In this document: positions 4,047 through 48,247 of the stretch, piece by piece
Position numbering within the stretch: position 1 is the stretch's first letter
Layout: the number at the start of each line of letters is the position of its first letter
Source of the DNA: Candidatus Lloydbacteria bacterium RIFCSPHIGHO2_02_FULL_50_18
GTDB lineage: Bacteria; Patescibacteriota; Minisyncoccia; Phycocordibacterales; UBA6899
Reading direction: 5' to 3'
DNA length: 64,000 nucleotides
NCBI GenBank assembly: GCA_001821395.1
Contig: MHLM01000001.1
Location: forward strand, 128,001 to 192,000
Position numbers and translations under genes: made by a program
The notes under the pieces: generated by a model
Told to the model about the DNA's origin: nothing
Database searches by the model: none
Seen by the model: the letters and a program-made list of their open reading frames with translations, nothing else

Positions 4047-4475
4047 TCACGAATCGCACAATGTCCATTTTGCAGGATTATTCGTATGCTTTGATTGCGT
4101 AATTACCGCCCATTGTGGATCACCATGATTGTGAACGGGGGTAATCGTCTGCAGTGTGTATTCACCCATTTTCTGACTCATGTCTGACCTAAAAACATCA
4201 TCATTGGTGATAGTGCTCGGGTCCCTCTCCGGATGAATACTCGCAAAGAATTCCCTTCGCCAGCCGCGGAGGTCCCCTGTCACAATTGTTCTCTGTACAA
4301 AGATGAATTCGGGACCTGCATTGCAAATGAAATTATAGCGGTGGCCCGTCCCGTCTTCGATCAGGGAAGCATAGGGCGGCAGATTCAGGAAGATGTCTCT
4401 ATTGATCACGGGGTACTCCCCTAGGATGGTGTTTGCATCTCCAGAAACCATAATACCAAATATGTATTTTGGCAA
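4047..4475 (-). CDS. hypothetical protein, paralog A of a tandem pair
   Basis: 142 aa. Shares a motif block (FxFVQRTIVxxxxxGW ... GxPxAVITQ) with the next gene. A hairpin plus T-run terminator lies at 3988-4020 on the minus strand. Confidence 0.5.
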   Translation of the reverse strand: MPKYIFGIMVSGDANTILGEYPVINRDIFLNLPPYASLIEDGTGHRYNFICNAGPEFIFVQRTIVTGDLRGWRREFFASIHPERDPSTITNDDVFRSDMSQKMGEYTLQTITPVHNHGDPQWAVITQSKHTNNPAKWTLCDS

Positions 4476-4545: not shown

Positions 4546-4920
4546 TCAACTCTTAAACCAATCGCGGGGATCGTTCACCATGAACTTCTGAGTGACGATC
4601 ACCGCTTCCGGATTTCCTTCTCGATCACGGACGATTACTTCAACATAAAAAGCACCATAATTTTCCCGCACATCCATCTTGAGCATATCCCCTTGTTTCA
4701 AAGCACGAGGATCTGCATTCACGAGACAAGCATTTTCTTGCTTCAGCCAACCGTTAAAGTGGCGGATAACAATAGTGCGCTGTACATACAGCCGCTGCTC
4801 GTCGATGAACGCCAGGACCGCAAGTTCTTCTCGAGTACCGATTTTACAAATAGTATCGAGCGCAAATACACCGCGAAATGATTCCATCTTTGCCTCTTCT
4901 TGAGGTGGAACAAACAACAC
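4546..4920 (-). CDS. hypothetical protein, paralog B of a tandem pair
   Basis: 124 aa. LYVQRTIVIRHFNGW ... GNPEAVIVTQ aligns with paralog A. A terminator hairpin (TTAAGAGTtgagcACTCTTAA plus T-run) follows the stop. Confidence 0.5.
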   Translation of the reverse strand: MLFVPPQEEAKMESFRGVFALDTICKIGTREELAVLAFIDEQRLYVQRTIVIRHFNGWLKQENACLVNADPRALKQGDMLKMDVRENYGAFYVEVIVRDREGNPEAVIVTQKFMVNDPRDWFKS

Positions 4921-6104: not shown

Positions 6105-6323
6105 CTAACAAACGTCAGGGCCGTGGCTTCCGCAACAAAGCTCACCGAGCGCCTCATTCGTTGACGCCTGAATAGCGTCTTTGTGACAGCATGATTCTGC
6201 AGTTTTGCCGCACGGGCATTTTCCATGCTCATCAAGCACCACTTTTTTTTCGTCAGCGGAACATGCGGCAACGCCCTTTTTATCAGACCCTGCACATGCG
6301 CAATCTCCTCCGCAGCCTCCCAT
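6105..6323 (-). CDS. cysteine-rich small protein (13 Cys in 72 aa; metallothionein-like or metal-binding?)
   Basis: MGGCGGDCACAGSDKK..CSADEKK..HGKCPCGKTAESCCHKD..LCCGSHGPDVC. Start overlaps the upstream gene stop (ATGA at 6323), indicating translational coupling. A terminator hairpin lies downstream at 6062-6100. Confidence 0.45.
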   Translation of the reverse strand: MGGCGGDCACAGSDKKGVAACSADEKKVVLDEHGKCPCGKTAESCCHKDAIQASTNEALGELCCGSHGPDVC

Positions 6324-6817
6324 TATGATTTTTTCTTCTTAGCTGGAGCCTTCTTGACCGACGCCTTTTTAACAGAGACTTTCTTGGCAACACCTTTCTT
6401 TGCGACGACCTTTCTTACCGTCTTCACTGCTTTCTTTACAGTTTTTTGAACCGCCTTCTTGGCGACTGATCCGCCCTTCTTTGCGGTGCGTGTAAGCTCG
6501 CGCTCGACGTTCTTCCAGTTCTTTTTGAGTTCCACTGCAGCACGATCGAGGTCACTCGCCTTGATCGAGGTCATATTCCCGTAAACCTCTGTCGCGTTAT
6601 CAATGATGGCTGCGTATGCCTTCTGATCAAGCTTCTTCATTTTCTTTGCCGCCTTCATGACATCAGCCTCCAGGTCTCCAACCCACTTTGCCGCCTTTTT
6701 GCGATGAGCTCCTGCATCCTTACTGCCATAAAAATAATACCCCGCTCCGGCCGCGGCCGCTGCTGCGAGCCCCAGACCGACTCCGACTGCTACTTTCTGC
6801 TTATTGACCTTTGCCAT
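6323..6817 (-). CDS. YtxH-like membrane-anchored protein with lysine-rich (histone H1-like) C-terminal tail
   Basis: N-terminal Gly/Ala-rich TM (VAVGVGLGLAAAAAAGAGYYFYGSKDAG) followed by a coiled coil. The C-terminus is AKK/VKK repeats. Confidence 0.45.
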   Translation of the reverse strand: MAKVNKQKVAVGVGLGLAAAAAAGAGYYFYGSKDAGAHRKKAAKWVGDLEADVMKAAKKMKKLDQKAYAAIIDNATEVYGNMTSIKASDLDRAAVELKKNWKNVERELTRTAKKGGSVAKKAVQKTVKKAVKTVRKVVAKKGVAKKVSVKKASVKKAPAKKKKS

Positions 6818-8560: not shown

Positions 8561-11239
8561 TTACTGAACCGGAGGCTGATCAGGCAAACGGAGAAGCGCC
8601 TGATCGAATGCGGAGAGCGGTTCATCTTTCTTTTCCTCTGTCATCAAGCGCGGAAAATCTGCACGCGTGAAAACGAGTGTCGAACCCTGCTCGAGCTTAC
8701 CGCCGATGATCTTCTCGGCGACCTTTTGCTCTATCACCTCTTGGACAGCGCGTGTCATCGGGCGCGCACCCATGTCGGGATCGACACCATCAAGCATGAC
8801 CGCATCGATGACCGTATCATTGATGACCAAATTGATACTTTTTTCACGAAGACGCTTTTGCAGCTTTTTCAGCATGAGTTCTGCTATGCGACGATAATCG
8901 GGAACGGTCAACGGATGGAACAAAATAATGCCGTCGAAACGATTGAAGAGTTCGGGCTTCAGCTTTCCCTGACCGATGATAGTATCAATGATCTCTTTTT
9001 TAACGCTTTCGAGTTCTTTTCCCTCGTGCATTGCCTCGCGTATCTGCGGCGCACCTGCATTCGATGTCGCGATAAAGATCGTATTGCGCGCATTCACCTT
9101 CTTCCCCTGTGCATCATGAAAGACTCCTTCGTCCAAGACCTGAAGAAAGAGATCGAGCACCTTGGTATTCGTCTTTTCAAACTCGTCGAGCAGAAGGACT
9201 CCGTAGGGCTGTTCCTTGAGCAATATTGTAAGTGCTCCGGGTGTTCCATCCATTCCGCCGATCATGCGATCGAGCCCATCATCACCCTGATATTCACTCA
9301 TATCGAGACGCGCCATCGCATTCTCGTTCCCAAAGAACACCGTCGCTAGGGCTTTTGCCGTTTCCGTCTTTCCCACTCCGGTCGGTCCCAAGAAAAGGAA
9401 TGCACCGATCGGTCTGTTCATGTTACGCACACCCGCTCGGGAGCGACGCATGGCATTCGCAATAACTTGAAGCGCCTCCTCCTGACCAACAACGAGTTTT
9501 TGCATAATCGTCTCAAGATTGAGCAATCTATCCCGCTCTTCCTCGCTAATATCACCAACGGGAATACTGGTCTTTTCGTGGATGAATCGCAGCACATCCA
9601 CTTTCTTGACGATGTGCCCTCCGTGCGCAAGCATGCTTGGCGTCAGTTCAACCAAGATATCGATCGCCTTGTCCGGCATGACCCCTTCGCTGAAATAGTG
9701 CTGCGCCCCGCTGATGATCTCAGTGATCGCGGGATAGGTGAAAAAGATGGGATTTCTCCGTTCGGTCTCCTCAGCGACCTCCTCGATGATGCGAACGAGT
9801 GACGCTTCAGCCGGCTCCGTAAGCATCACCTTCTCAAAACGTTTCATGATCGCATTGTTCGGCTCAATGAATTGATGAAATCGGGAATTATCCGCAGTCG
9901 CGATGACTTGAATGAAATCCCCGGAGAGATACGGATCGAGAATGCCGACCACGTCCGCATCAATTGCGAGCGCACCCTGAATAAATCCCGGCAGGTCATC
10001 AATGACGAGAATAATATTCCCCGCCTTTACGGCGTCATTCATGATACGGATAAAAGACGTTTCAAGTTCCTGCTTTGTTTTCATCGTCGCGATGAACGCA
10101 TTCGCATCAAAAGCCATGACCCGCTTGTGCATTAACGTCGGATTGATGTATCCGTTCATGATATCCCGTGCAAAATCCAAGATCACGTCCATTTTACCTG
10201 TGCCTTCTTCACCAACAAGAATAGCATTCGCTTCCTTCGAGCGGGACAAAACGACCTCGAGCTGCTTGATCTGCTCGCTTCCGTAAATGAAGTTAAAACT
10301 CGAACCTCCTCCGATCGCTTCTTTAGTGAGGTCATGACTGAACCGACTGAGCGCATATGCGGAACCGTACGCAAAGTCTGCACCGAACGACGGCGACTGT
10401 CCGAGCGACACCTTACCCCAATAACGTTTTTTCTGTTTTCTTTTTTTGATCTGTCGCTCCACCCACTCGGTCGCTCCGACAAGTTCGCGCTTTCTCACTC
10501 CGAGTCCAAAGAGAAACTGGTAGAAATCCGGATCCAATTCGGTTATTTTGTTTGAAAGATCAAACAGCGTGAAAACTTCACGAAGCTCAGATTCCTTTTC
10601 TGCAAAATTCACGATGGTTGTTCTGTTCTTCAAATACTCTCTGACCGATTCCTCGCCGATGCCGCAACGAGTGAGAATATGCCGTCCATATCGTGAGGTG
10701 GCAAATGCAAAGAGGAGGTCTCCGTGTGCAACGACATAATATATTTCCGCTACCTCGTAATTTGGGATCGTATATGGGGTCTGCGCCCCCACAGCGCCAC
10801 GCTCGAGGAGTGCCTCGACATAATAATAGTAAGAATTGCCGTAGAAGCGAAGCATCTTCATTGTAAGCCAGACCGCAAAAGCCATGAGAAAAATGCCATT
10901 TCCGATAGGATTTTTTGTATCAAGCGGAATACGAGTTCCGCCGACAAAAGGAATGAGGTTCGGAATCGGGGCACTCGTAGGTATCGCGACCTGATCGGCA
11001 CTTGGGACGGTCACCGTATCACCGAAAAACTGCTGATATTGCGTGGGGATAGCGACACCACTCAAAAGCTTCGCCCTGATAAGGGGGGCACAGAGTATTC
11101 CGAGATAGATGATAACGATCGTTCCGCTCAAAACAGAAACCCATCCGCGGATTTTTCTTGATAATACTGCGTCAAGAACGATCGTTTTGTGATAACGCTC
11201 TGCCGGTTCTTTAAAAAAACTGTTATTGAATCCAAGCAT
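8561..11239 (-). CDS. membrane-anchored Hsp100/Clp-family AAA+ ATPase with degenerate D1 and intact D2; no M-domain and no obvious ClpP-binding loop
   Basis: D2 has Walker [10 protein letters not shown], Walker B LLLDEFEK and sensor/arginine-finger regions. D1 Walker A is GEEGTGKM and Walker B is ILVIDDLPG (both degenerate). Two N-terminal TM helices. Start ATG at 11239 lies 2 nt after the TGA of the upstream gene. Confidence 0.6.
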   Translation of the reverse strand: MLGFNNSFFKEPAERYHKTIVLDAVLSRKIRGWVSVLSGTIVIIYLGILCAPLIRAKLLSGVAIPTQYQQFFGDTVTVPSADQVAIPTSAPIPNLIPFVGGTRIPLDTKNPIGNGIFLMAFAVWLTMKMLRFYGNSYYYYVEALLERGAVGAQTPYTIPNYEVAEIYYVVAHGDLLFAFATSRYGRHILTRCGIGEESVREYLKNRTTIVNFAEKESELREVFTLFDLSNKITELDPDFYQFLFGLGVRKRELVGATEWVERQIKKRKQKKRYWGKVSLGQSPSFGADFAYGSAYALSRFSHDLTKEAIGGGSSFNFIYGSEQIKQLEVVLSRSKEANAILVGEEGTGKMDVILDFARDIMNGYINPTLMHKRVMAFDANAFIATMKTKQELETSFIRIMNDAVKAGNIILVIDDLPGFIQGALAIDADVVGILDPYLSGDFIQVIATADNSRFHQFIEPNNAIMKRFEKVMLTEPAEASLVRIIEEVAEETERRNPIFFTYPAITEIISGAQHYFSEGVMPDKAIDILVELTPSMLAHGGHIVKKVDVLRFIHEKTSIPVGDISEEERDRLLNLETIMQKLVVGQEEALQVIANAMRRSRAGVRNMNRPIGAFLFLGPTGVGKTETAKALATVFFGNENAMARLDMSEYQGDDGLDRMIGGMDGTPGALTILLKEQPYGVLLLDEFEKTNTKVLDLFLQVLDEGVFHDAQGKKVNARNTIFIATSNAGAPQIREAMHEGKELESVKKEIIDTIIGQGKLKPELFNRFDGIILFHPLTVPDYRRIAELMLKKLQKRLREKSINLVINDTVIDAVMLDGVDPDMGARPMTRAVQEVIEQKVAEKIIGGKLEQGSTLVFTRADFPRLMTEEKKDEPLSAFDQALLRLPDQPPVQ

Positions 11240-11241
11240 GA

Positions 11242-11703
11242 TCAGAAGGTCAGTGAATGAATTCCGGTAATGAAAAAATGTCCGACAAGAATAGGGAGGA
11301 TCGTCCACAGCAAGATGATCGCCATACCAAGAAGCAGTACGATAAAAAAGCAAATAATGGCAATACCGATGAGCGCACTACGGAGCACAAAGCCGACCAT
11401 CCGCATGATAAAATTGACGACCATGTTGCCAAAAAACTCTCCTGGATCAATGATCAGACTTACTTTTTTCTCCTGAAGCCTCTTGAACGGAGCGACCCAG
11501 CTTCGCACGACGTCAGGAAAAGAAAAAAGATGATTCACATACCAAAGATAGTTCCACCAAATGTGGACAATATCCACATAGGCCAGTGAATAGTGCCAAA
11601 CAAAGTAATCTCGCATGAGCGCCAATAGGGGCATATAGTAAAAGTATATCATGGAGCGGGCAACAACGAATAGCGAGTAGCAAATATGTATAAAAAACCG
11701 CAA
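11242..11703 (-). CDS. hypothetical membrane protein, translationally coupled to the Clp-like ATPase
   Basis: Aromatic-rich N-terminus and two C-terminal TM helices (ALIGIAIICFFIVLLLGMAIILLWTILPILVG). Its stop lies 2 nt before the downstream start. Confidence 0.4.
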   Translation of the reverse strand: MRFFIHICYSLFVVARSMIYFYYMPLLALMRDYFVWHYSLAYVDIVHIWWNYLWYVNHLFSFPDVVRSWVAPFKRLQEKKVSLIIDPGEFFGNMVVNFIMRMVGFVLRSALIGIAIICFFIVLLLGMAIILLWTILPILVGHFFITGIHSLTF

Positions 11704-11737: not shown

Positions 11738-12391
11738 CTACCTGTACTTATTACACCGAATGAGCTGAGTAAAGTCGTTTTGGTCTTTTATAGCCAGGCA
11801 CATGCCACTCTCATAAAATTCAAATCCATCTCTAGTGATCGCACCGTCAGCACTGTCGGTATCGAGTCTAAAAAAATAACCAGAGACAAATCCATCATTT
11901 GCAGTCTTTAACAGAACACTGTGTCCCTCAGGTTCCACCCTTCCACGATCACGTGCGCGATACTTGATTGTCAGCAATAGTTCGCGTGCTCCTCTATATT
12001 CATGTTTCGCAATAAGTTTTGCCGCCGCAAGCATATCCGTTTCATTGCGGAGCAACGCCAGTGCATGATCCAATTGCTCATATCGTTTAGAGTTCCCCTG
12101 GCAAGAACGATATGCGAAAGTATCGGCATAGACGAGGGCGCCCACTGCCTCGCTAACATCCCCTGACTTGATGGCAAGCGCCGCGTACTTCTCGAACACA
12201 GCGATCTGCCGTTTCATTTTTTGCATTTGCGGCGCACTCATCGAATCGCAGCGCTCTGTGAGTGGCGCGGCAAAGGAAATTTCGGGTAACGCGATAGCAA
12301 GCACAGCAAAAAATATTTTGACAAAATTCATGATTATCCTTTTCTGCGTGGTCCTAAAACATGGTACCATAAAAACGATAGAAGTCAACAT
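11738..12391 (-). CDS. secreted hypothetical protein (likely start MNFVKIFFAVLAIALPEISFA at 12331)
   Basis: Signal-peptide-like N-terminus. A terminator hairpin lies at 11706-11736. No recognised domain. Confidence 0.45.
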   Translation of the reverse strand: MLTSIVFMVPCFRTTQKRIIMNFVKIFFAVLAIALPEISFAAPLTERCDSMSAPQMQKMKRQIAVFEKYAALAIKSGDVSEAVGALVYADTFAYRSCQGNSKRYEQLDHALALLRNETDMLAAAKLIAKHEYRGARELLLTIKYRARDRGRVEPEGHSVLLKTANDGFVSGYFFRLDTDSADGAITRDGFEFYESGMCLAIKDQNDFTQLIRCNKYR

Positions 12392-12412: not shown

Positions 12413-13255
12413 CTACTTATAGAATATTTTATTGCCAAAACGCAAGTCGATCGACTTCACCGTTGTTGTCCCCTTCTTTGTACGCGCGATCTCCTCTTCA
12501 GCAAGCTTCAAGTTTGCAACACTTGCGCTCGGATCCTTCGATGAGGTCCATGAAAAAATCCATGGCTTGTCACTCGTGAAGGAGTAATCATGCTCATCAA
12601 GCTGGTCGATCTCATGCACGAAAATTCCCTCCTTTTCCAGCTCAGCAATAACGGCATACACTCTTTCGAGTTCTTCTTTCGGAAGCATAAATAATCCGAT
12701 CGGAGTATCCTGTTCGCTTTCACCCGCAATATTGGTGCGATAAATATCGAACGGGTAACCGGAGTACTCCGGAGCAAGCGCAAATACATAACCCTCACTG
12801 TCGGCGAGATAACAAATACCGCGGTCAGTCGTCGAGGCCTCAGCGCCACTCATGCACCAGAGATGCTTTGGCAGATACTCTATTATATTGATCTTCAGTA
12901 TCTTTTTTGCCTCAACGTTCATGTCGACCGCTTTGATGTGCGCATCAAAAGCGAGTAACGCAAGTGAAAGTTCCGAGCTTGGGTAAAAGAGTGCATTGTT
13001 GCGGTCTATCCTCCAAAGGATCTTTTCGGAAAGTAGTTTTTGTGCGATATTCCTGATCTCATCTGCACTACTTGCTACCGCTCCGGAGACCTCGATCGTA
13101 CTGATGCGAATAGCCTCCCGCTCCGCCCCCCAACTCACCGCGAAAAAAAGAAAATACCCAATCAATAAAAACTGACAGAGCCGTTCGAACGCGAGATCAA
13201 TGCGACGCATCCGGGCTCGTCCTGATTTAAGTGTTTTACGCGAGAGAAAGGCCAT
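12413..13255 (-). CDS. ftsQ: cell-division protein FtsQ/DivIB-like (TM plus POTRA-like domain)
   Basis: Short cytoplasmic N-terminus, TM (FLLIGYFLFFAVSW), then IRISTIEVSGAV..SADEI, a POTRA-like segment. C-terminal beta domain ends ...SIDLRFGNKIFYK. Confidence 0.45.
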   Translation of the reverse strand: MAFLSRKTLKSGRARMRRIDLAFERLCQFLLIGYFLFFAVSWGAEREAIRISTIEVSGAVASSADEIRNIAQKLLSEKILWRIDRNNALFYPSSELSLALLAFDAHIKAVDMNVEAKKILKINIIEYLPKHLWCMSGAEASTTDRGICYLADSEGYVFALAPEYSGYPFDIYRTNIAGESEQDTPIGLFMLPKEELERVYAVIAELEKEGIFVHEIDQLDEHDYSFTSDKPWIFSWTSSKDPSASVANLKLAEEEIARTKKGTTTVKSIDLRFGNKIFYK

Positions 13256-27663: not shown

Positions 27664-29778
27664 CTAAATAGCACCACTCTTACATTGCTTACATAAGTCA
27701 CGTACATTCTCGGGAACATAATCACACGACGGTGCGAGTTTGAAATTCTCGCAGACATTTGCGGGCATTCCGCCACCCGACGCGCCAGCAGGAGGCATCA
27801 TACCGGTCGGAATTCCTGCGGGAAGCTCTCCGCTCTTTGGAACTCCCTCGGGACGATAACCTGCTTCGGGGATGCCCTCCTTAGGAATACCCGCTGGCAT
27901 TCCGGCAGGTCTAAAACTCTGCATGCACTCAGCGATAAACGGCTGTACGTCTTCCGGTCCTCGTATTGTAGAAACATCACCGATCTTCGACTTGATACAG
28001 TCACGCATTTCCGCTGGCGCCTGCTCGAGCATCTTATCCATTATTGCAGTCGCATTAGCCGCACATGATTGAAATGCATTCCCCATGTCGGGAGAAAGCT
28101 CGATGCCGTCTCCATTCATGATCTTTTCTACGACATCTTTTCCAAGTTTCTCTTCGATACATGCGCGCATTTCCGGCGGCATCTTCTCAAGACCTTCGCG
28201 CGCCTGTTGCATTCCGCTCTCACGCATGGACTCAAAACACTTTCTCACGATATCTCCGCTTTGCGCATCCATTTCCCCACCCGAAAGCATCTTATCGAGC
28301 CCGCTCGACCCAAGCCCTTTTTCGATACAGGCTTTTGCCTCGGGTGTTGCGATATCCATCGCTGCACTTATCTTTTCTTTTATCTTAGGCATCATATCTG
28401 CCATGCAACCCTTGATCAACTGACCCATATTTTGTGTGGGCATGAACGTACCTTCTGATATCTTTGCCAGCGCTTCTTCTCCTAATTTTTCCTTTAGGCA
28501 TACACGCGCTTCTTCAGGAAGCTGCGGCAAACCGGCACGCAATTGACCCATTCCATCTTTGATCTCTTTCAATTGCTCGGCTGGAATGAGGCCATACTTT
28601 TCGGCAAACTTAAAACATTCTTCCTGGTGCGACGTATCATTACAATACGCCTCACAAGTTTCACGAGAACGGCACCCACCGGGACCCTCTCCGCCGGTCT
28701 TCCTCGCCATCTCGGCATCTTCCTTTGAAATGAGCCCTGCTTTCTCGGCGAAGTTCACACATTCATCGGCATGATCACTTTCGGAACAATATGCTTCACA
28801 AAGCGCTTTTGTTGTGCACTTTCCGGGAGTTTCACCCGACTTCATAAATGGGAGTACTCTGCGCGACTCTGCGACATCTTTTGGATCAATGAACCCTGCT
28901 TTCTCGGCAAACGTGAGACATTCATCAGCATGGGTCGTATCAGCGCAATATGATTCACATGATTTTTTGTCTGTGCAGCCACCCGGAAGCGTCGCGCCTT
29001 CTGCAAGTACTCTGGATATCCGTTTCGCGTCCTGCAATACATCTTTCGGTATCAGGTTGTGTCGTTCTGCAAATAAGAGGCATTCATCCAAATGCGCGAC
29101 TCCATTGCAGTACGCCTCGCATGTTTTTTGGTCCTTACATGCACCGGGACCGTCTCCTCGGAGAACATCGGCAAACTCCCTCGCGCGAGCAGCCTCTTCC
29201 TTTGAGATCATGCCATTTTCTTCCGCATAATCCGTACACGCTACGATGTGCGCCTTGTCATCACAGTACGTCTTGCAGGACGACTGGTCCTTACAATTTC
29301 CGAGCTTAGTGATGGGAAATTTATTCTTCTCAGTTTCCGATCGCTGCAGATGCCCGACCGCACCAAACACACTATCGGTCACGACACCGTCATTGGTGAA
29401 CGTATACACGCGCCCCCACAAATTCAACCTCATATCATCGGGACGCTGCGTCTGATACGAAGTGGAATATATCCCTTTTGTACCCTCGTTGAAACCACTG
29501 ACGCTCCAGTTCATGTCGGCGGCAGTGTATCGAATCGTATATATTTTTCCTGCCATGAGCGTTCCCATGGGGTCGCTCGAACCCTTCCAGCCGGAATCAT
29601 CAAAATTGGCTGTATCAAAATTCACGTAAAATGTTTTTCCCGACTTGATGTACGACTGCCATGGCCCGAGTTCGGGTGCCGCAAACGCAACGATCACCGA
29701 GCTCATGAATATTCCCGCACAAACGATCAGCACTGCAATGTGTCCTGCGAGCACATTCTTCATGTGAAAATTTTTCAT
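27664..29778 (-). CDS. secreted cysteine-rich repeat protein (705 aa): signal peptide, beta-rich domain, six Cys4-His repeats, four helical Cys repeats, Pro/Gly-rich tail
   Basis: Six roughly 45-aa repeats of the form C-x5-C-x3-YC-x4-H-x3-EC-x2-FAEK..LI. Then four EMRxCIExKLG-type repeats. The C-terminus is PAGIPxEGxP-rich. Start taken at MKNFHMKNVLAGHIAVLIVCAG. Confidence 0.6.
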   Translation of the reverse strand: MKNFHMKNVLAGHIAVLIVCAGIFMSSVIVAFAAPELGPWQSYIKSGKTFYVNFDTANFDDSGWKGSSDPMGTLMAGKIYTIRYTAADMNWSVSGFNEGTKGIYSTSYQTQRPDDMRLNLWGRVYTFTNDGVVTDSVFGAVGHLQRSETEKNKFPITKLGNCKDQSSCKTYCDDKAHIVACTDYAEENGMISKEEAARAREFADVLRGDGPGACKDQKTCEAYCNGVAHLDECLLFAERHNLIPKDVLQDAKRISRVLAEGATLPGGCTDKKSCESYCADTTHADECLTFAEKAGFIDPKDVAESRRVLPFMKSGETPGKCTTKALCEAYCSESDHADECVNFAEKAGLISKEDAEMARKTGGEGPGGCRSRETCEAYCNDTSHQEECFKFAEKYGLIPAEQLKEIKDGMGQLRAGLPQLPEEARVCLKEKLGEEALAKISEGTFMPTQNMGQLIKGCMADMMPKIKEKISAAMDIATPEAKACIEKGLGSSGLDKMLSGGEMDAQSGDIVRKCFESMRESGMQQAREGLEKMPPEMRACIEEKLGKDVVEKIMNGDGIELSPDMGNAFQSCAANATAIMDKMLEQAPAEMRDCIKSKIGDVSTIRGPEDVQPFIAECMQSFRPAGMPAGIPKEGIPEAGYRPEGVPKSGELPAGIPTGMMPPAGASGGGMPANVCENFKLAPSCDYVPENVRDLCKQCKSGAI

Positions 29779-29782
29779 ATCG

Positions 29783-30070
29783 CTAGAAAGGATTCTGATA
29801 AGTGTCGGTATACGGATTGACCGTTTTTTCGAACGGATTCGTATCAGGCATCTTTTCGACTGGATTGGATGCACCAGTTTTTTGATAAATATCTCCACCA
29901 AAAGATTCGGCGGGTACCGCCTCTGCCGGTGTGGCATTTGTATCACTTCCTGATAATGTGTTGTCGGTCCCCTTTTGAGAAGTACCGAAATAAAACCAAA
30001 ACATAAACCCTAAAATGACGGCGAACACGAGCGCGGCAAGCGCAAGTAGTACATTTTTTTTCATGATCAA
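29783..30070 (-). CDS. small secreted/membrane-anchored hypothetical protein
   Basis: N-terminal hydrophobic helix MKKNVLLALAALVFAVILGFMFWFYF, with a low-complexity Thr/Pro/Asn-rich remainder. Its stop lies 4 nt before the start of the repeat-protein gene. Confidence 0.4.
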   Translation of the reverse strand: MIMKKNVLLALAALVFAVILGFMFWFYFGTSQKGTDNTLSGSDTNATPAEAVPAESFGGDIYQKTGASNPVEKMPDTNPFEKTVNPYTDTYQNPF

Positions 30071-30258: not shown

Positions 30259-32943
30259 TTACACCTTCACATTGGACTTCACTCTCACTTTTGAGCGAAT
30301 GGGTTCTCTCTTTTTGTCCACCTTGATGTCGATCTCTTCGCCTTTCATTCCGACAGTGACTAACCCCCCGGACATCATACGTTCTCTGATGATCGCTGAA
30401 GCGACCGGAGTGAGGATCTTGTCTTGGATCAGTCTGCGAAGCGGCCGCGCACCATACTGCGGATTGTATCCGGCCTTTGCAAGATAGCCGAGCGCATCAT
30501 TCGAGATGACCAGCTTGATTTCTTTCGTGAGCAATCGTTCACGAAGTTTTTCAACCTGTAGCGTGACAATATTCTTCAGCGCTTCAGGAGAAAGAATATC
30601 AAACATGATGATGTCATCGAGACGATTCAGAAACTCGGGTCTGAAGTAATCTTTCAACCGAAGCATCACCTTGTCCTTGGTCTGGGTATATTCCTCCGCA
30701 TCGTTCGCATTACCAAAGCCGATCGTCTGCATCTTGTCGATGAATTCGCTTCCGATATTGGAAGTCATCACAATGACGGTATTCTTAAAGTTGACAACGC
30801 GACCCTTGGAATCAGTGAGTCGTCCATCGTCTAAGACTTGAAGCAGGATGTTGAATACCTCAGGATGGGCTTTTTCTATTTCGTCGAAAAGAATGACGGA
30901 GTACGGGCGATGGCGCACCATTTCAGTCAAATTGCCTGACTCTTCATAGCCCACATAGCCGGGAGGAGCTCCGATCAGCTTGGAAACGGCAAATTTCTCC
31001 ATGTATTCGGACATATCAACACGGATCATCGACTTCTCATCGTCGAAGAGAAATCCCGTAAGCGCCTTGGTAAGTTCGGTCTTACCGACTCCTGTTGGAC
31101 CCAAAAAGAGGAACGATCCAATCGGTCGACCCGGGTCGGCGATGCCGACACGCGAACGCTTGATAGCATCGGCGATCTTTTGGATGGCCGCATCCTGCCC
31201 GACCACGCGCTTGCGCAGCTCGTCCTCGATGCGGTTCAGCTTGGATGCCTCTTCCTCAAGCATGCGCGACAAAGGAACTCCGGTCCATTTCGAAACAACT
31301 TTGGCGATGTCCGGCTCGGTCACCTCCTCGTGCAATATCCGCCGTGAGCTTTGCAATTTTTTTAACTTGGCGGTTTTCTCGATCAGCGATTTTTCCAGTG
31401 CGGGAATTTTCCCATAACGGATCTCTGCCGCCTTCGCAAGATCACTACGCAATTCAGCATTTTCAGCCTCGAGTCGAAATGTTTCAAGCTCTTTTTTGAT
31501 ATTGCGGAGTGCTAACACAAGCTCTTTTTCATTCTTCCATTTTAATTCAAATTCACGCGTTTCTTCTTTGAGATCAGCAATCTCCTTGCTGATGATCTTC
31601 ATGCGGTCCTTTGCCTTTTTCCCCGCAGCGCCTTCGGACTCCTGTTTCAAGGCTTCATTTTCAATTTCCAGGCGCATGATCTTGCGATGTGTCTGCTCAA
31701 GGATCGTTGGCTTGTTTTCCAATTCGATGCGCAGTGACGATGCGGCTTCGTCGATAAGATCGACCGCCTTGTCGGGAAGAAAACGATCGGAGATATAACG
31801 GCTCGACAGATTCACTGCCGCCAAGATAGAGTCATCGGTGATCTTCACGCCGTGAAATATCTCGTATTTCTCCTTGAGTCCGCGCAAAATAGCCACCGCA
31901 TCCTCGATCGAGGGTTCGTTGATATAGACCGGCTGAAAACGTCGCGTAAGCGCCGGGTCCTTTTCGATATATTTTTGATACTCCTTAAGTGTGGTCGCAC
32001 CGATCGCGCGAAGTTCCCCTCGCGCAAGTGCAGGTTTCAGCATATTTGAGGCATCCATTGCCCCTTCTGCCGCACCGGCTCCGACGATAGTATGGATCTC
32101 ATCGATGAAAAGAATGATCTTTCCTTCAGACCTCTCGATCTCCTTCATGATGGCCTTCAGGCGCTCCTCGAATTCTCCGCGGTATTTCGTACCCGCGATC
32201 AGGAGACCAAGATCAAGTGAAACAAGCTCCTTATCCCGCAAAAATTCGGGAATATCTCCTTTTGCGATACGTTGTGCAAGACCCTCAACGGCTGCGGTCT
32301 TTCCCGTTCCTGCCTCACCGATGAGTATGGGATTATTTTTTGTACGACGAGAAAGAATCTGAATGATACGGCTGATCTCTTCGTCTCGGCCAACGACGGG
32401 ATCGAGCTTGTCTTCCTTGGCAAGCTTCGTGAGCGAGCGCGTGTACTTTCCGATAGCGCGCATTTTCTTTTGCCCTTCGCCTTCGCCATTTCCGCTATCA
32501 CGCAGCTCATAGAGTACGCGCAAAACACTTTCTTTATCGATGCGAAATTTCGCTATGATCTCCTGCGCACCTGACGGGACGTTCATGAGCGAAAGAAAAA
32601 GATGCTCGGTTGAAATGAATTGATCGCTCAACTCCTTTGCAACCGCTTGCGACGCTTCAAGTGCTTGTGCGAGCTCGGGAGTAAGATACAGCTGATAGGA
32701 CGAGGCGGTCTGACTGCTCGGCTGATTTCCCTCCTCAAGAGTCTCGATGATCGTCTCCGTCATGATGACGGGATCGATATCGAGCTTCTCGAGAATAGAC
32801 AGAACCATACTCTCATCCTGGAGCACAAGACCCGCCAAAAGATGGACTGGTGTGACATGAGTCTGCCCACGCTCAATGGCGAGCTCGTGGGCACGCCTAA
32901 TCGCATCTCTCGCTTTTGTGGTGAAATTATTGAATGGTGGCAT
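30259..32943 (-). CDS. clpB: chaperone ClpB (two AAA+ modules plus coiled-coil M-domain)
   Basis: N-domain, D1 ([16 protein letters not shown]), long coiled-coil M-domain, D2 ([18 protein letters not shown]). Size is typical at 894 aa. Confidence 0.9.
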
Positions 32944-41458: not shown

Positions 41459-44400
41459 TCATTCATTTCCCATCAATTCGTTTATTTTAGCCGAAGTGGT
41501 TTTACCAACATATCCGGTCCCCCTAACAAGACCCCAGGGCGCTAAAACATCTTCGGTATATTTTTCTTGGAATTTTATAACTGCTTTATAAGTCAAGAGG
41601 CCGAAATAATCAGTTTCCTTACCCGGAGAGCCAACACCCGAATCAGCCAATCGAGTATCGGGGTCGGAATTGAGGAAAATTTGCAAGCGTTTTATGTCTG
41701 CATTTGTTTGTCGGTATTGTCGGTATTGAGTAAATGGGTTAGTAAATGGCAAAATATTTATTCGCAAATTTTCCGTTACAGTAGTACCCGATCTTAGAAC
41801 GATTATGCTTGAAGCAGTATCTGATGATCTGCCGTAGGCAGTGTAAAATTTAACATAAACGGTATATTGTCCATCCGGACAGATTAGATTTTTAAGTGTA
41901 CCGCCAAATTTTGAGCATAAGTCCCATAGCTTGAAGGCGACATAATCTTCTCGGCTGGCATCAGTGAAATCTCCAGTCATTGAAATCGCCAATTGCTTGA
42001 TGTCCATTCCCGCATTAAAACCAAGTATGACATTTCTATTTGACGTTGTGCTTGATCCGGAATTTACAAAAACCTTAAATCCACCTGTCGGCGTTATCGG
42101 CAAATTACTCCAACCTGCTGGCATACCACCTCCCCCACTTGAAGTTACAGCAGGAGTTACTAAGACGGCGTCCCAAATCAAAGTAAAATTATGAGAGTTG
42201 GAATTTCCGACGTTATCTGAGGCAGTAAAACTGATTACATAAGTTCCGTTAGTATCGACTGAGATAGTTGTGCTCGACGCGGTACCGTCTCCAAACGTTA
42301 CCGCACCAGGTCCTGAAACTTTTGCCCACTGATAAGTTGAAGCGTTCATATCGCTCCCGGAATCTGAAGCTGCAGCGACTTGAGTAAATGTAGCTCCTTT
42401 ATTTTGATCATCTCCAGCACTAATGGTGGGATTTTGTTTATCAATTTTTATGATATTTGACGATTCTGTGTTCTCAATATTCCCTAAATTATCTACTGAG
42501 TAGTACCTTATATATTGCTGACAACTAGAACCTGAGTCACACGACAAACTAACACTTGTTCCTTCAGTGGTTGGCACGCAGCTATTATTAGTGTCAACGC
42601 AATAATATGTATGCGCTATTCCGCTTCCGCTATTATCAGACGGGTTCAAATTAATAGTAAGATCTGAACTATGCCAATTATCATCAGCATTATCGGTTGT
42701 AGTTGGAGACGTATTTCCCACTACAATCGATTCATTAAATGAAACGCTCCAATCGTAAAGGGGCAGTCCGGTACTGCCTGAAGATGGCGATACGCTCGTA
42801 TCTGTATCTCGAATATTACCACCTACGGCAGTAGCATCGCCGGCTTGTGCGCACCAAGATGCAACAACATAGCAACTCCAGGCGTATCTCAAATGTTGAT
42901 CTGTGCCAGTCGGCGTATCACTTAGAGTAATTTTTACTTGACTGTTATTATTTATAAGTTCTACTGAATCTATTGAAACACTATTGCCACCAGCCTGTGT
43001 AAATTCAAACCCATAATCAGGACGCTCCGCAACGTTGGCAGTATCAATAGCTAATGTTCCATAAGGGATATTATAATTGGCGATTATTACGTTACTCGAT
43101 CTCAAAATCGATGATGGCATGAGGGGATTCCAAGTCTGTCCCTCAAACAATACTTTATCCATAACTTTTGCAAACATCTCTCCCATTTTTTTTCTTGGGT
43201 ATTCACGTCCATATGGAGCTTGTCCGACCGATAATGATATTGATACTTTGGCTGGACCAAAATAATTTTTCCGGGATTATCTATATGCGCGTTTAATTGT
43301 GCTTCAGCTATTTCCCCCGTTGGCGCGGAATTCATTTGATTTATAAATAATGGGATAGTGTCGTTACGGCTAGTCAGAGTATTAAGATCGGTTTCATAAT
43401 CCAACTGCCATTCTTCAAGATAACTTTTATAATTTGCTCCGGCACCACCCACATAATCACTTTCTCCGTGAATTGAAGTAACTGCGATGGGTCGATACAG
43501 CTCGCCTAGCGTACTCTCAACGTAAGTTTTAGTTACACTTGCCTGTGTCATACCCTTGTTATACCAAGATGTCCCCTTTTTTAAACCACTGTAGTTAGTT
43601 CCACCATGTGCATGGAGGCCAACGACAATTGGACTGAGAAGATCTTCATACGCATGAAGGCTATTGGCCATTCCTGATGAGATTGTTTCCACATTACCGC
43701 CCTCTCCTTGCCCAGACTCAATTAATGGTATGAGCGGAGCAGCTGTTCCTTCAACTCCGGGGGTAAGCATAAGATTATTATAAGGCTGCGTAACGCTTAT
43801 AGGCGGTGAAGCATAATAAACTACGGCCAGACTTTGCCCCGTTGACAATATCTGATAGTAGGTTGTTTGCTCATTTACCGCGAAGGAAACAGTCCCGGAA
43901 TTATTTGTAAGAGCAGGAGTTGCTGACACGCTTATTATATGAGGAGACCCACTCGTACTTGTAGGTGTATAGGTGAATGTTTTTGCATCTGACGAACCGG
44001 ACCACGACAACGAAGTTGGCGCAAACGTTCCGGCACCAGTTGATGACGATGTAATCGTGCCGGTATATTCGCCATCAGGCGTCACAATAAAATTACCGGA
44101 TGCTGTAGCCATCGTGCCAGACGACGGGCCGGCAAAAGTAAATGATGTAGCGGGTGGCGCAAGGGTGACGACTGAAAATTCAGAACTGTCTGCGGTTGCA
44201 GGGACGCCATCGGTAACCCTGAGCTTGTAATAATAAATCGTAGCGGGAGATAGTCCGGTATCTGATAATGTGAGCGATGTTTGTCCGCTTAAAATATTCC
44301 CAACACCCGGCGTAAAACCGCTGCTTATGCTACGGTACCACTGATAAATATAGGGTGCTATTCCTCCTGTTGCTTCCGAAGATGAAAGATCGATACTTGA

Positions 44401-45189
44401 ATCTGTTTTCTCCATTAAACTAATTGAGCCGGCGCTAAAAGTAGAAAACGGATATTCAAGCCCTGTGCCCGAATTGTATAAACTCGTGATCTCATCTGGA
44501 GTTAGTATTTTTTTCCAAAAACCAACAGAATCAATGCGCCCGTCCAAATACATTGTAGCACCAGAAGCCTGAAATCTCCCGATTGTAAATGCTGCGCTAG
44601 TATTTGCCGGCTCGGAACCGGCGACGCTTGTATTGGTATACGTATTATTAACAGTTATGGTATTAGTATGAGTGGTAGCATTGTGGCTACATGTGAGAAA
44701 ATACCATTGGCCAATCTGGACTCCCCCCGTTGGAGTCACATATGCATCTACCGATGGAAAAGTAGAACAGCGAAACGTGTCGGAACTAACACCGTAATAC
44801 AAAGCATATTCTCCGGTGCTGCCATATTTTCCAACAAACGTCATATTTGTTGATTTGGTATCAAGATAGACCCATGCAGAAATAGTAAAATCTATACCGC
44901 CTATACTCAAACTGGGATTATCAACGATGCTTAAATATTCTGAGTTAGCCATAGTTAACTGCGCAGAATTTCCAAGTTTGCCAACTCCTTGAGTCACCGT
45001 ATTGTTGTCGGTCAGATTATTTGAACTAACACTATCTGCTCGCGTACCACTTACCTCATCTAATTTCCAATAAGAAATAAGTGATGTGGATAAATCCGTT
45101 GCAAAAACATGAGAGAAAAATTGTGTGTACAACGACACCGAAATTAAAAGCAGGGCAAATATTTTAAAATTTTTTCGAAAGGTTTTCAT
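41459..45189 (-). CDS. large secreted surface protein (about 1250 aa if read through): signal peptide, LamG-like lectin domain, Ig/FN3-like region, SASA/sialate-O-acetylesterase-like (SGNH) domain, beta-rich repeats, C-terminal peptidoglycan-binding domain. Interrupted by a frameshift at an A8 tract at 43186-43193, giving ORFs 43102-45189 and 41459-43186.
   Basis: N-terminus MKTFRKNFKIFALLLISVSL is a signal peptide. LamG segments FTISAWVYLD and GRIDSVGFWKKILTPDEITSLYNSG. Esterase motifs GQSLAV, HGESDY and DKLHMD. Adding one A to the coding-strand A8 run joins ...DKLHMDVNTQEKK to MGEMFAKVMDKV..., restoring the SASA C-terminal consensus. C-terminal PG_binding-like segment DIKRLQIFLNSDPDTRLADSGVGSPGKETDYFGLLTYKAVIKFQ. 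Confidence 0.55.
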
Positions 45190-45619: not shown

Positions 45620-46606
45620 ATGACTATTTCTGAAAGCACCTTAGACAAGGTCGGCGCAATGGGCGCTGCATTCTCTCTCATTGACCTCATTCGCGGGTTC
45701 AGCCATGGAGGCGTTCACGTCGGCGGAGGCACGGGCGGAGTAGGTTTTCTTACTTCTCTTCTCACTGTGCTCGTCAGAGTATGGGAAGAAAAAGGCGGGA
45801 GCATGAAAGACGAAAGCGAAATGCTCGAGTCAATGTTTGCAAACCCGCAAGCAAAGAATGAAAAACTCACACCGCAGGAACGTACCAAGATCGCGGCCGT
45901 CATCAAGGCGATGACTCCGGCAGAGCAGAAAGTGTTCCGCATCGCAATTTTTGTGATGGACCCCGATGTGACGACGATCGAAGTACCGGAGAAAAAAGAC
46001 AAGGACGGCAAAGTCATCGCTGTAGCCGGAAAACGAACCGAAAAAACGGGAATTGATCCTCGGGTCAATGTCCTGCACGGTATCGCCGAGCACGTCCATG
46101 ACAACCTCGATAACGTCACCGAAGTGGCCGAATTACTTCGCGGTACGGGGGCGCTGGGTGGAAACAACGAGGCACTTAAGTTTCTCGTCAAGGTACAAGT
46201 AGAGCTCAAAAAGCTTCTTTGCACGTTCTTCGGGGTCGAATCCGTCGATCTTATCACCTTCGACATGGTCAAAGAAAAGGCAACCGTGCTCATCGGAAAT
46301 ATCGGTGTGCCGAATGCCAATTTGCCGGGACCTCCGGTCGGTCCGCTCATGCGAGTGGGTCGCCTCATCACGCCGGGGAGTTATCGCAATGCTCCTGCAT
46401 CGAAAAGCGTGAAGTCCAAGAAAGAGGTAAGGTCGACGAGCCTGCTGAAGATGTTTGCAGTGGTAGCATGTATCACCGGCATCCTCGCTTACGGCTTGTA
46501 CTTCGGAGCTTCAAAGTACCGAGCGTACCAAAGAGATACTGAGATTGACAACATCATCAACGCGTATCAACCGACCAAAACGTCGGCTGAGCAGCCGATG
46601 AAATAG
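45620..46606 (+). CDS. hypothetical protein (328 aa) with Gly-rich N-terminal hydrophobic segment and C-terminal TM anchor
   Basis: No recognisable domain. Its stop lies 18 nt before the next gene, consistent with an operon. Confidence 0.5.
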   Translation: MTISESTLDKVGAMGAAFSLIDLIRGFSHGGVHVGGGTGGVGFLTSLLTVLVRVWEEKGGSMKDESEMLESMFANPQAKNEKLTPQERTKIAAVIKAMTPAEQKVFRIAIFVMDPDVTTIEVPEKKDKDGKVIAVAGKRTEKTGIDPRVNVLHGIAEHVHDNLDNVTEVAELLRGTGALGGNNEALKFLVKVQVELKKLLCTFFGVESVDLITFDMVKEKATVLIGNIGVPNANLPGPPVGPLMRVGRLITPGSYRNAPASKSVKSKKEVRSTSLLKMFAVVACITGILAYGLYFGASKYRAYQRDTEIDNIINAYQPTKTSAEQPMK

Positions 46607-46624
46607 GTCTCAAGGAGAAATCTC

Positions 46625-48247
46625 ATGAGTTTATGGAAAAAAGCAGGCTACGGCCTTTTGGGAATTTCGGCCATTCTCGGTCGAAGGACCCTCTCGTCCG
46701 CATACGACCGCCAGATCGAGGGCATTACCGACGCGCATATCAAATATGTCGGCGGCGCAATGCTCTTCGGAGTTTGCGGTCTCGTGCTTAACTTCATCTT
46801 TTTGATGAATGGGATGCACGGCATGCAAACAGCGCTCTTCGGAGTTATCTGTCTTGCGTCACTGTATTACATGATCGCGCCAAAAATGAGCATTCCGCTC
46901 ATCATCGCGGCCGCAGCGGTTCATGCCGGAGAGGCGAAAGATCAAGCGAAGCTCAAACTGCTCGGCGACGGAGTGAAAGACATTGTCAATCTGGCAAGTC
47001 TGGCACTCTTTTGGATCGGTGTGTACATCGTCGGAACGATCATTGCCCCATGGGACTTGAGTTGGGAATTCTTTCTTTTCCTTCACATGTTCATCATCAT
47101 GGCACTACTGCTCTTTGTGAGCGGCAAGGCATCGGTCAGCACGAAAGTGTACGATAATTGCTTCAAGTTCACCATTGCTGTGATCGTTGTCAGCGTACTC
47201 ACGATCGCAATCGGACGTGAGCACGTAGGACCATTATGGGCGCAATTCTCCGCAAGCAAAACTTCTCGTATCGAGGCCAAGTTGAACGCAAGTTCGATTA
47301 AGACCGCAGACGAAGCGTCAGCCGAGTGGATTGAGAAGAATGTTCACATCGATAAGCGGACCGGTGAGCAATTCGTCATCGTTACCGACAAGGTCACCGG
47401 CAAACAAAAACCGGTCGCCGCACAGCCCTACATTGAGAGGGAGAAGCAACGCAGGAACGAAACCATCCGCTCGGTCACGGAAAAAGGCGGAAAGACCAAT
47501 GCGACAAACACGAGACAGGATAATAAGGGAGGTTACTTCTCTTATGAATACTGGAACGCAAAAGCGCATGAATGGTCGGAATCCTGGGGGGTACCACTCT
47601 TCGTCGGCATCATTGCAGTATTGGCAATGGTCGTGGCACACTTCATTCCCGTCATCTGGGGAGGAAAGAAACTCTTTGGAAAGTCAGGTACTGAAACGGC
47701 AAAGGTTGTTAGTACGCCGAAGGAGTCCGGAAACGGACTTGTTGCCACATTACTCGTTGCGGGTGCTCTCGTGTATATTGGCTTTCAGTATACGCAAGGT
47801 GAACGAGGAGCAAAAGCCAATATGGCACCGCAAACAAGCGTTGCGACATATGCCACACTAAAGAAAGGAGATGCCGGTCTGTGGATGGCCTACTGGAGTG
47901 ACATGAACGGGCACTCCATTTACAGACTTCCTCAAGATAGATGGCATGGGCGAACTGTTTCGCTTTTGCCAGGCAGCTCTGTTTCGAATGTGTCCGACAT
48001 CACGCTTGTTTTTGATCCTAATGATCCAAGTACCAATATCTCATTTAACGGAGATTGCGTTGCCGGTAGCTACGATATTCAAAAAGAGTGCGTCGGATAC
48101 TGGAGAACAGAAGTGGGGTCCGGTACTTTCAGGCTTGAATGGTGGGGAAGCCAGGAAACATTCCACATTGCACTGTTTCCGGGACAACTGCCGGCAAAAG
48201 GACAGGCACAAGCCATCAAGGAGATACGCTTCGTAAAAAAACAATGA
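46625..48247 (+). CDS. hypothetical polytopic membrane protein (540 aa; about 6 N-terminal TM, soluble insert, 2 more TM, C-terminal beta-rich domain)
   Basis: Hydrophobicity pattern only. Followed by a bidirectional terminator at 48278-48312. Confidence 0.5.
   Translation: MSLWKKAGYGLLGISAILGRRTLSSAYDRQIEGITDAHIKYVGGAMLFGVCGLVLNFIFLMNGMHGMQTALFGVICLASLYYMIAPKMSIPLIIAAAAVHAGEAKDQAKLKLLGDGVKDIVNLASLALFWIGVYIVGTIIAPWDLSWEFFLFLHMFIIMALLLFVSGKASVSTKVYDNCFKFTIAVIVVSVLTIAIGREHVGPLWAQFSASKTSRIEAKLNASSIKTADEASAEWIEKNVHIDKRTGEQFVIVTDKVTGKQKPVAAQPYIEREKQRRNETIRSVTEKGGKTNATNTRQDNKGGYFSYEYWNAKAHEWSESWGVPLFVGIIAVLAMVVAHFIPVIWGGKKLFGKSGTETAKVVSTPKESGNGLVATLLVAGALVYIGFQYTQGERGAKANMAPQTSVATYATLKKGDAGLWMAYWSDMNGHSIYRLPQDRWHGRTVSLLPGSSVSNVSDITLVFDPNDPSTNISFNGDCVAGSYDIQKECVGYWRTEVGSGTFRLEWWGSQETFHIALFPGQLPAKGQAQAIKEIRFVKKQ

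Follow-up and report, generated by a model that had tools for sequence, protein, structure and literature searches.

A predicted membrane-anchored Clp/Hsp100-type ATPase with a degenerate D1 and a conserved small membrane partner in Patescibacteria

The Clp/Hsp100 ATPases ClpA, ClpB, and ClpC share a two-ring AAA+ organization, a Clp_N-type N-domain, and the Pfam domains AAA_2 and ClpB_D2-small. Hsp100 motors thread their substrates from the first ring, D1, to the second, D2, and class-I members that are uncoupled from ClpP and dedicated to a single client or apparatus have precedents in ClpV/TssH and in HSP101 of PTEX. Here we describe an ATPase of this superfamily that is encoded next to a small membrane protein in a 64,000-nucleotide (nt) stretch of the genome of “Candidatus Lloydbacteria” bacterium RIFCSPHIGHO2_02_FULL_50_18 (contig MHLM01000001.1, positions 128,001 to 192,000; hereafter, the window). 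All coordinates given below are window positions, and the gene pair lies in the region from 8561 to 11703 on the minus strand. The ATPase gene (8561 to 11239, with the ATG at 11239 and the stop codon at 8561 to 8563) encodes a membrane-anchored class-I Clp/Hsp100-type AAA+ protein of 892 amino acids (aa), as judged from its predicted domains, and the partner gene (11242 to 11634, minus strand) encodes a membrane protein of 130 aa, or of 136 aa from an alternative ATG at 11652. The best explanation of the pair is a two-component inner-membrane machine specific to Patescibacteria. These organisms represent a large share of bacterial diversity and have tiny genomes, and few of their conserved proteins still lack a described function. 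The Clp/Hsp100 superfamily is already known; what is new here are the changes in the pore loops, the predicted obligate and sometimes fused partner, and the recurrence of the pair near division and cell wall genes.

In Pfam searches, the ATPase shows matches to AAA_2 (residues 609 to 769; E = 5e-38) and ClpB_D2-small (residues 778 to 855; E = 5e-21) but not to Clp_N (PF02861), and D1 yields only a sub-threshold AAA_lid_9 hit. The NCBIfam ClpA model aligns continuously to residues 257 to 855, which indicates that D1 is homologous but diverged; this D1 also aligns to residues 157 to 401 of ClpB and to ClpA, and the identity between D2 and the D2 of ClpB is 35 to 44%. The protein thus has the class-I combination of an AAA_2-type D2, a ClpB_D2-small domain, and a homologous D1. 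The AlphaFold2 (AF2) monomer model, built from a 76-sequence alignment (predicted local distance difference test score [pLDDT], 85.7), contains two AAA+ modules and a helical N-domain, and its best fold matches in the PDB are ClpC from Staphylococcus aureus, Bacillus subtilis, and Mycobacterium tuberculosis and ClpB from Escherichia coli, with a TM-score on the target of ~0.7 to 0.8. All of the NCBIfam equivalog models tried (ClpB, ClpA, ClpV, ClpK, and ClpG) match the ATPase, at about one-third of their cutoffs. The ClpV/TssH model, for example, scores 327 bits against a cutoff of 885, and the neighboring genes are serS, ftsQ, and dus, with no type VI secretion genes nearby. Homologues are named “AAA family ATPase,” “ClpC/ClpA,” or “hypothetical” in databases (the Joint Genome Institute [JGI] annotators use ClpC or ClpA), and full-text literature searches on the Clp, AAA+, and membrane-anchored Hsp100 proteins of Patescibacteria, the candidate phyla radiation (CPR), or Parcubacteria found no description of the family.

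The N-terminal part of the ATPase is predicted to hold it at the membrane. A basic cytoplasmic tail of 27 aa (11159 to 11239; 6 Lys or Arg residues among residues 1 to 32) is followed by transmembrane (TM) helix 1 (residues 28 to 60; 11060 to 11158), an extracytoplasmic loop (residues 61 to 110; 10910 to 11059), and TM helix 2 (residues 111 to 138; 10826 to 10909). Both helices are evident from hydropathy and from the AF2 model, which has helices at the same residues (pLDDT, ~80 to 94). The loop is a subfamily-specific insertion and the least conserved region of the protein; in most family members the hairpin loop comprises only ~5 to 10 aa. The two-TM anchor proposed in the preliminary description is therefore a property of the family: the hydrophobic hairpin is kept in essentially every member, and homologues begin at the same Met, so that the anchor helices belong to the real protein and a miscalled N-terminal extension can be rejected. 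The 930-aa TTG-initiated open reading frame (ORF) in the mechanical ORF list represents an overlap into the upstream gene, and the 892-aa ATG call is preferred. Behind the anchor lies a conserved Tyr-rich linker (residues 139 to 160; 10760 to 10825; column conservation, 0.59; pLDDT of <50 at residues 143 to 153), which leads into a reduced Clp_N-like helical N-domain (residues 161 to 299; 10343 to 10759) recognized by profile-profile comparison (hhalign against ClpA/B N-domains, P = 90% and E = 1.8e-6 over 91 columns). Taken together, these features assign the ATPase to the two-ring, class-I Clp/Hsp100 AAA+ proteins, with a two-helix hairpin that, according to the predicted topology and the structural model, tethers it to the membrane on the cytoplasmic side.

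The partner gene ends with a TGA codon at 11242 to 11244, leaving a gap of 2 nt to the ATG of the ATPase gene, as the preliminary description had reported in noting an upstream membrane protein; this pairing proved to be real and conserved. A homologue of the partner is found directly 5' of the ATPase gene in all 74 of the GTDB-representative loci that have upstream DNA, as well as in 8 of 9 loci collected earlier (L001 to L004 and L006 to L009); in the ninth (L005, protein P0097), the ATPase is a fused form and there is no small upstream gene. Nine of the 74 loci encode an in-frame partner-ATPase fusion at the N terminus of the ATPase. Among the 65 loci with separate genes, 59 have an in-frame ATPase ATG within −25 to +19 nt of the partner stop codon, the most common gaps being +1, −4, and −1. 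In the reverse direction, each of three independently picked partner homologues was followed by an 815- to 855-aa protein with the AAA_2 and ClpB_D2-small domains. Fusion and invariant adjacency are strong evidence that the two proteins act as one complex, in which the partner is predicted from gene organization to be an obligate subunit, adaptor, or anchor of the ATPase.

The N-terminal ~85 aa of the partner are helical and carry the motifs W-H-Y ... F-S-x-P ... P-F/W-K-R ... R-x-V-G-x-x-x-R, and the C-terminal ~45 aa are hydrophobic; the AF2 model is all-helical (pLDDT, 86). Most homologues have 130 aa, and P0121, which is 100% identical to the partner, has been called at 136 aa. A profile search retrieved at least 625 clusters, every one of them named hypothetical and all from Patescibacteria. 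There was no Pfam match, and the best hits in the PDB had E values of 0.69 in the profile search and 5.3 in the Foldseek search. In the N-terminal 160 aa of the fused ATPases, the hydrophobic hairpin of the partner is accompanied by one extra TM helix (L053, L077, L079, and L081) or by none (L082 and L084). As the helix count can be odd or even, no single topology of the partner N-terminal domain fits all fusions. In the clade in which the pair precedes mraZ (see below), a membrane protein of ~112 to 118 aa without Pfam matches is encoded directly 5' of the partner in at least 7 loci (e.g., L063:3548-3952, L090:4647-4985, and L092:4659-4994) and may be a third component.

The two rings of the ATPase differ sharply in their motifs (the motif correspondences with the reference ClpA and ClpB sequences agree with the PDB alignment). 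D1 (residues 300 to 545; 9605 to 10342) is degenerate. Its Walker A motif (10190 to 10213) reads GEEGTGKM (residues 343 to 350), compared with GEPGVGKT in E. coli ClpB; the Mg-binding Thr is replaced by Met, as stated in the preliminary description, but the Lys that was also thought to be lost is retained as K349. The Walker B motif (9986 to 10015) is IILVIDDLPG (residues 409 to 418), compared with ILFIDELHT in ClpB, and the catalytic Glu has indeed been replaced, by Asp. Sensor-1 is degenerate as well, and in the pore loop (10058 to 10084) KTKQELE takes the place of KYRGEFE, with loss of the Tyr. The ATPase thus lacks the canonical D1 Walker A (GxxGxGK[ST]) and Walker B (hhhhDE) motifs that characterize ClpB, ClpA, and ClpC.

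D2 together with D2-small (residues 546 to 856; 8672 to 9604) is predicted to be catalytically intact. Walker A (9365 to 9388), Walker B (9173 to 9196), sensor-1 N727 (9053 to 9070), the Arg finger R767 (8933 to 8947), and the sensor-2 GAR at residues 824 to 826 (GARP; 8759 to 8770) were located by alignment and are invariant in 76 aligned homologues. The earlier view of D2 as fully intact holds for these catalytic motifs but not for the pore loop IGGMDGTPGAL (residues 660 to 670; 9230 to 9262), which is 4 to 5 residues shorter than that of ClpB and lacks the GYVG tyrosine (the ClpB-type counterpart is [11 protein letters not shown]). Neither of the pore-loop tyrosines typical of ClpB, ClpA, and ClpC (KYR in D1 and GYVG in D2) is therefore present.

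These features are shared by the family. Among 95 diverse representatives of 50%-identity clusters, a canonical D1 Walker A is found in 1, a D1 Walker B DE in 1, and the D1 Walker A Lys in 26; a canonical D2 Walker A is found in 92 and a D2 Walker B in 93. The D2 loop is 4 to 6 residues shorter than the ClpB loop in all 95, and its Tyr is present in only 3, as well as in 3 of the 192 sequences used to survey the loop tip. At the tip itself, Phe accounts for 37% and Met for 28% of the 192 sequences, usually with Asp or Glu next to it; the statement that D2 is entirely devoid of a hydrophobic pore residue was softened in the light of this wider sample. Column conservation is 0.60 in D1 and 0.72 in D2, and the persistence of D1 despite its degenerate motifs fits a structural pseudo-ATPase ring. 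On the motif evidence, D1 appears to be a conserved but catalytically dead scaffold and D2 the only catalytically competent ring. A pseudogene or decaying paralogue can be rejected on account of the intact reading frame, the invariant D2 motifs, and the conservation across hundreds of species. Outside the window, protein P0096 (873 aa) retains canonical D1 Walker A and B motifs (GEPGCGKT and IDEIH) although both pore tyrosines are absent, which suggests that the pore change came before the decay of D1; its N terminus shows a weak match to the partner domain (E of ~3e-4).

The pore loops bear directly on the main rival explanation, a serious one, although we regard it as rather unlikely: a nonthreading, Torsin-like switch, in which the ATP cycle of D2 would drive the assembly, disassembly, or conformational change of a membrane complex together with the partner. 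Nothing would be threaded through the pore, and the dead D1 and the partner would serve as regulatory, activator-like elements. The family-wide loss of the canonical tyrosines from both loops and the shortening of the D2 loop favor such a switch, as do the pseudo-ATPase nature of D1 and the apparent obligate membrane partner, which recalls the need of Torsin for LAP1/LULL1. However, the ATPase has two rings, its D2 is a full Hsp100 D2 with a D2-small domain and its own invariant Arg finger, the hydrophobic residue that persists at the loop tip could still grip a substrate, and phmmer searches of the PDB at E of ≤0.001 returned no Torsin chain.

The preliminary description had also noted that the protein lacks a ClpB-type M-domain and a ClpP-docking loop, and both observations were borne out. 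Only ~35 residues separate PDKAID (residues 521 to 527) from the start of D2, compared with ~125 to 160 in ClpB; the D1-D2 spacing is ClpA-like, and alignments with ClpB from the PDB are split in two, breaking at residues 536/545. The absence of the M-domain, in ClpB a coiled coil inserted into D1-small, argues against ClpB-type coupling to DnaK. Similarly, the tripeptide [ILVM]G[FL] is found between the D2 sensor-1 and the Arg finger, the site of the IGL/IGF/VGF ClpP-docking loop in ClpA and ClpC, in none of 181 family members, where the loop is of ClpB-like length, which argues that the ATPase does not feed a protease. It is hence hardly credible that the protein is a membrane-anchored ClpA/ClpC orthologue handing membrane proteins to ClpP, in effect FtsH-like proteolysis built from Clp parts. 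The two-ring layout without an M-domain does resemble ClpA, and the JGI names point the same way, but the score against the ClpA equivalog is 358, far below its cutoff of 993, and no clpP was found among the scanned ORFs of the window.

A membrane-localized disaggregase, that is, a ClpB paralogue rescuing aggregates near the membrane, is very unlikely, even though D2 matches ClpB best in sequence (414 bits for TIGR03346 and 351 bits for ClpB in the PDB). The TIGR03346 score compares with a cutoff of 1232, and the alignment falls into two separate stretches. Besides lacking the M-domain, the ATPase has a dead D1 and no pore tyrosines, and an obligate membrane partner would be unexpected in a general disaggregase. 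Furthermore, a canonical ClpB is encoded in the same window, at 30259 to 32943 on the minus strand; it scores 1186 bits against TIGR03346 over its full length (positions 1 to 852 of 853) and has all of the canonical motifs. The preliminary description was thus right to call this clpB genuine and to set the ATPase apart from the housekeeping disaggregase. Two findings that could have undermined its account, intact D1 motifs upon alignment and a mispredicted hydrophobic N terminus, were looked for, and neither was obtained.

The family, whose markers are the TM anchor, the partner, and the D2-loop deletion common to its members, was surveyed for its distribution with a D1-specific peptide pattern, counting one genome per species. 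At least 583 species-level genomes, with record titles pointing to Patescibacteria, encode a confirmed relative of the ATPase. The titles among the matches listed include Lloyd-, Taylor-, Kaiser-, Nomura-, Ryan-, Yanofsky-, Nealson-, Portnoy-, Sung-, and Gottesmanbacteria, Paceibacterota, and Minisyncoccia. Residues 1 to 300 alone match 254 representatives of 50%-identity clusters, and the closest relatives of the ATPase are labeled “Candidatus Lloydbacteria,” Paceibacterota, or Patescibacteria. The titles “Saccharibacteria,” “Gammaproteobacteria,” “Bdellovibrionales,” and “Sulfuricurvum,” which also occur among the loci, were not accepted as reliable taxonomy. The last three titles belong to the contigs of L084, L089, and L064, of which L089 is very GC rich; these titles may reflect misbinning, mislabeling, or a real occurrence beyond Patescibacteria.

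The gene neighborhood was surveyed in 80 loci with ±5-kb flanks, considering genes on the same strand; the genomes are small and related, so these loci are not independent samples. A division or cell wall gene is present in the flanks of 40 of the 80 loci, in at least three distinct arrangements. In the window, ftsQ (12413 to 13255, minus strand) lies upstream of the pair, with which it may be associated. The order serS-ftsQ-pair-dus is characteristic of one clade, being found in 12 of the 80 loci and in L001, L002, L006, and L007; a family-wide synteny of this kind was accordingly rejected, and the partner is the sole universal neighbor of the ATPase. The distance from ftsQ to the pair reaches ~1 kb in L014 and L019. 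The assignment of ftsQ is based on a POTRA_1 match in 11 of 14 orthologues and a profile match to FtsQ from the PDB (E = 9e-7). Between ftsQ and the partner gene, the window contains a gene (11738 to 12391, minus strand) for a protein of 217 aa that has a hydrophobic, signal-like segment at its N terminus and gave a negative Pfam scan; it looks like a lineage-specific operon insertion, since ftsQ directly precedes the partner gene in L001, L002, L007, and L011. On the other side of the pair, a Lys/Ala-rich protein of 164 aa with an N-terminal hydrophobic segment (6323 to 6817, minus strand) recurs 3' of the pair in at least 6 related loci.

A different clade has the pair directly 5' of mraZ (18 loci), rsmH (15 loci), an ftsL-like gene, and ftsI (12 loci), and in L004, it is found between mraZ-rsmH-ftsL-like and mraY. 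Other loci encode a PBP5/YkuD peptidase or an M14 carboxypeptidase within ~4 kb of the pair; the PBP5/YkuD gene lies upstream in 3 of 6 loci and downstream in the remainder. This neighborhood hints at a functional link between the pair and the division or cell wall machinery, a suggestive but not conclusive indication drawn from gene order. The recurrence of the pair beside ftsQ, mraZ-rsmH-ftsL-ftsI, mraY, and peptidoglycan peptidases suggests a client in that apparatus.

The N-terminal anchor and the ~20-aa linker imply that the N-domain/D1 face is turned toward the membrane, and given the D1-to-D2 direction of Hsp100 threading, if translocation occurs, clients would be drawn out of the membrane or away from it, not exported. 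This geometry bears on the idea of an export motor, in which the ring would drive proteins, in unfolded form, through a channel formed by 12 hairpin helices and the helices of the partner, as in PTEX HSP101-EXP2. Such a motor would agree with a membrane-embedded multisubunit assembly driven by an Hsp100 and with the lifestyle of Patescibacteria, which live attached to host cells. Still, it is highly improbable, because the anchor places the D1 entry face, not the D2 exit face, toward the membrane; most family members are nearly devoid of an extracytoplasmic part; and the pore loops are noncanonical. The secretion role considered in the preliminary description is disfavored for the same reasons of orientation and topology. 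Its other suggestion, an unfoldase or extractor of membrane proteins, fits the topology, although the lost pore tyrosines weaken the notion of a plain unfoldase.

Our preferred reading, with a probability of roughly 0.45, is that the ATPase acts independently of ClpP, is powered by D2, and, together with its partner, extracts or remodels specific proteins associated with the membrane, with a possible link to the divisome. The ATPase would form a probable hexamer with the N-domain/D1 face toward the membrane, by analogy with FtsH and Msp1; using ATP hydrolysis in D2, it would act from the cytoplasmic side to pull on, or to remodel, a specific client that is embedded in the membrane or associated with it, and the client would then be let go, not degraded. 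The acidic, tyrosine-less pore points to a narrow client range or a nonthreading mode. Clients might accordingly be few, perhaps recognized through basic juxtamembrane segments rather than unfolded in general, and might include a member of the division or cell wall synthesis apparatus. Several observations weigh against this scheme. Both rings lack the pore-loop tyrosine that threading Hsp100s need, and the Met or Phe with an acidic residue on the shortened D2 loop is only a putative gripping element. The fused forms carry either no extra TM helix or one. Half of the loci have no association with a division cluster, and where it exists, that association may be a conserved synteny of small, related genomes. 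A bolder and more doubtful proposal combines the pseudo-ATPase D1, the tyrosine-less acidic pores, and the obligate, sometimes fused partner into a Patescibacteria-wide two-subunit membrane AAA+ system that, without threading, would use ATP to remodel the division and cell wall synthesis apparatus or to serve as its checkpoint.

The rest of the window is typical of a Patescibacteria segment, with a GC content of ~48%, a short dnaX, dus, serS, topA, relA/spoT, parB, gyrA, and eight tRNA genes. Two adjacent small ORFs on the minus strand (4047 to 4475 and 4546 to 4920; 142 and 124 aa) have a common [FY]VQRTIV...GW motif and are apparently tandem paralogues. The regions 27664 to 29946 (minus strand), 45620 to 48247 (plus strand), and 41459 to 45189 (minus strand) hold several large ORFs without a Pfam match (760, 328, and 540 aa) as well as two predicted surface proteins of the PKD/LamG type, the “dark” and surface content that is usual in Patescibacteria.

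Conservation in at least 583 species genomes makes it likely that the pair does something central, and its placement beside ftsQ and the mraZ-ftsI cluster provides a lead on how Patescibacteria divide or build their walls. Should the nonthreading divisome proposal be true, the pair would be a lineage-specific divisome component without a counterpart in model bacteria. For the AAA+ field, the ATPase would be a naturally occurring Hsp100 that combines a membrane anchor with a fossil D1 ring and re-engineered pore loops, from which one could learn which features of a Clp motor are required for mechanical work and whether a Torsin-like, partner-dependent mode arose independently in bacteria.

Among the described systems, FtsH and Msp1/ATAD1 are similar in inferred geometry, in that a TM anchor at the N terminus is joined by a short linker to a ring whose entry face is turned toward the membrane, and also in the proposed action, which by analogy would consist of pulling clients out of the bilayer (this comparison draws in part on PMC12793716). 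However, FtsH and Msp1 belong to the classical single-ring AAA+ clade, have aromatic pore loops, and show no sequence relationship to the ATPase outside the AAA+ core; FtsH, moreover, has a fused protease, whereas Peptidase_M41 was not found in the ATPase, whose C terminus is ClpB_D2-small. Torsin with LAP1/LULL1 resembles the pair in being a ClpB-D2-like AAA+ protein at a membrane, with a non-aromatic pore loop and a dependence on a membrane partner (a comparison that draws in part on PMC5425593). Torsin, in contrast, is a single ring in the lumen of the endoplasmic reticulum and has no Arg finger of its own, while the ATPase has one and carries its pseudo-D1 fused in cis. ClpV and HSP101, the precedents for a dedicated class-I Hsp100, are soluble, have an active D1, and retain the pore tyrosines, in all of which the ATPase differs. 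Several features set it apart from ClpC, ClpA, and ClpB. Two TM helices anchor its N terminus, and a small membrane protein is its apparently obligate partner; D1 has degenerate Walker A, Walker B, and sensor-1 motifs; the tyrosines are lost from both pore loops, of which that of D2 is also shortened; an M-domain, which ClpB and ClpC have, and a ClpP loop, which ClpA and ClpC have, are both missing. Thus, the ATPase belongs to the Clp/Hsp100 superfamily by its domain content and fold but falls outside ClpB, ClpA/ClpC, and ClpV as these families are defined.

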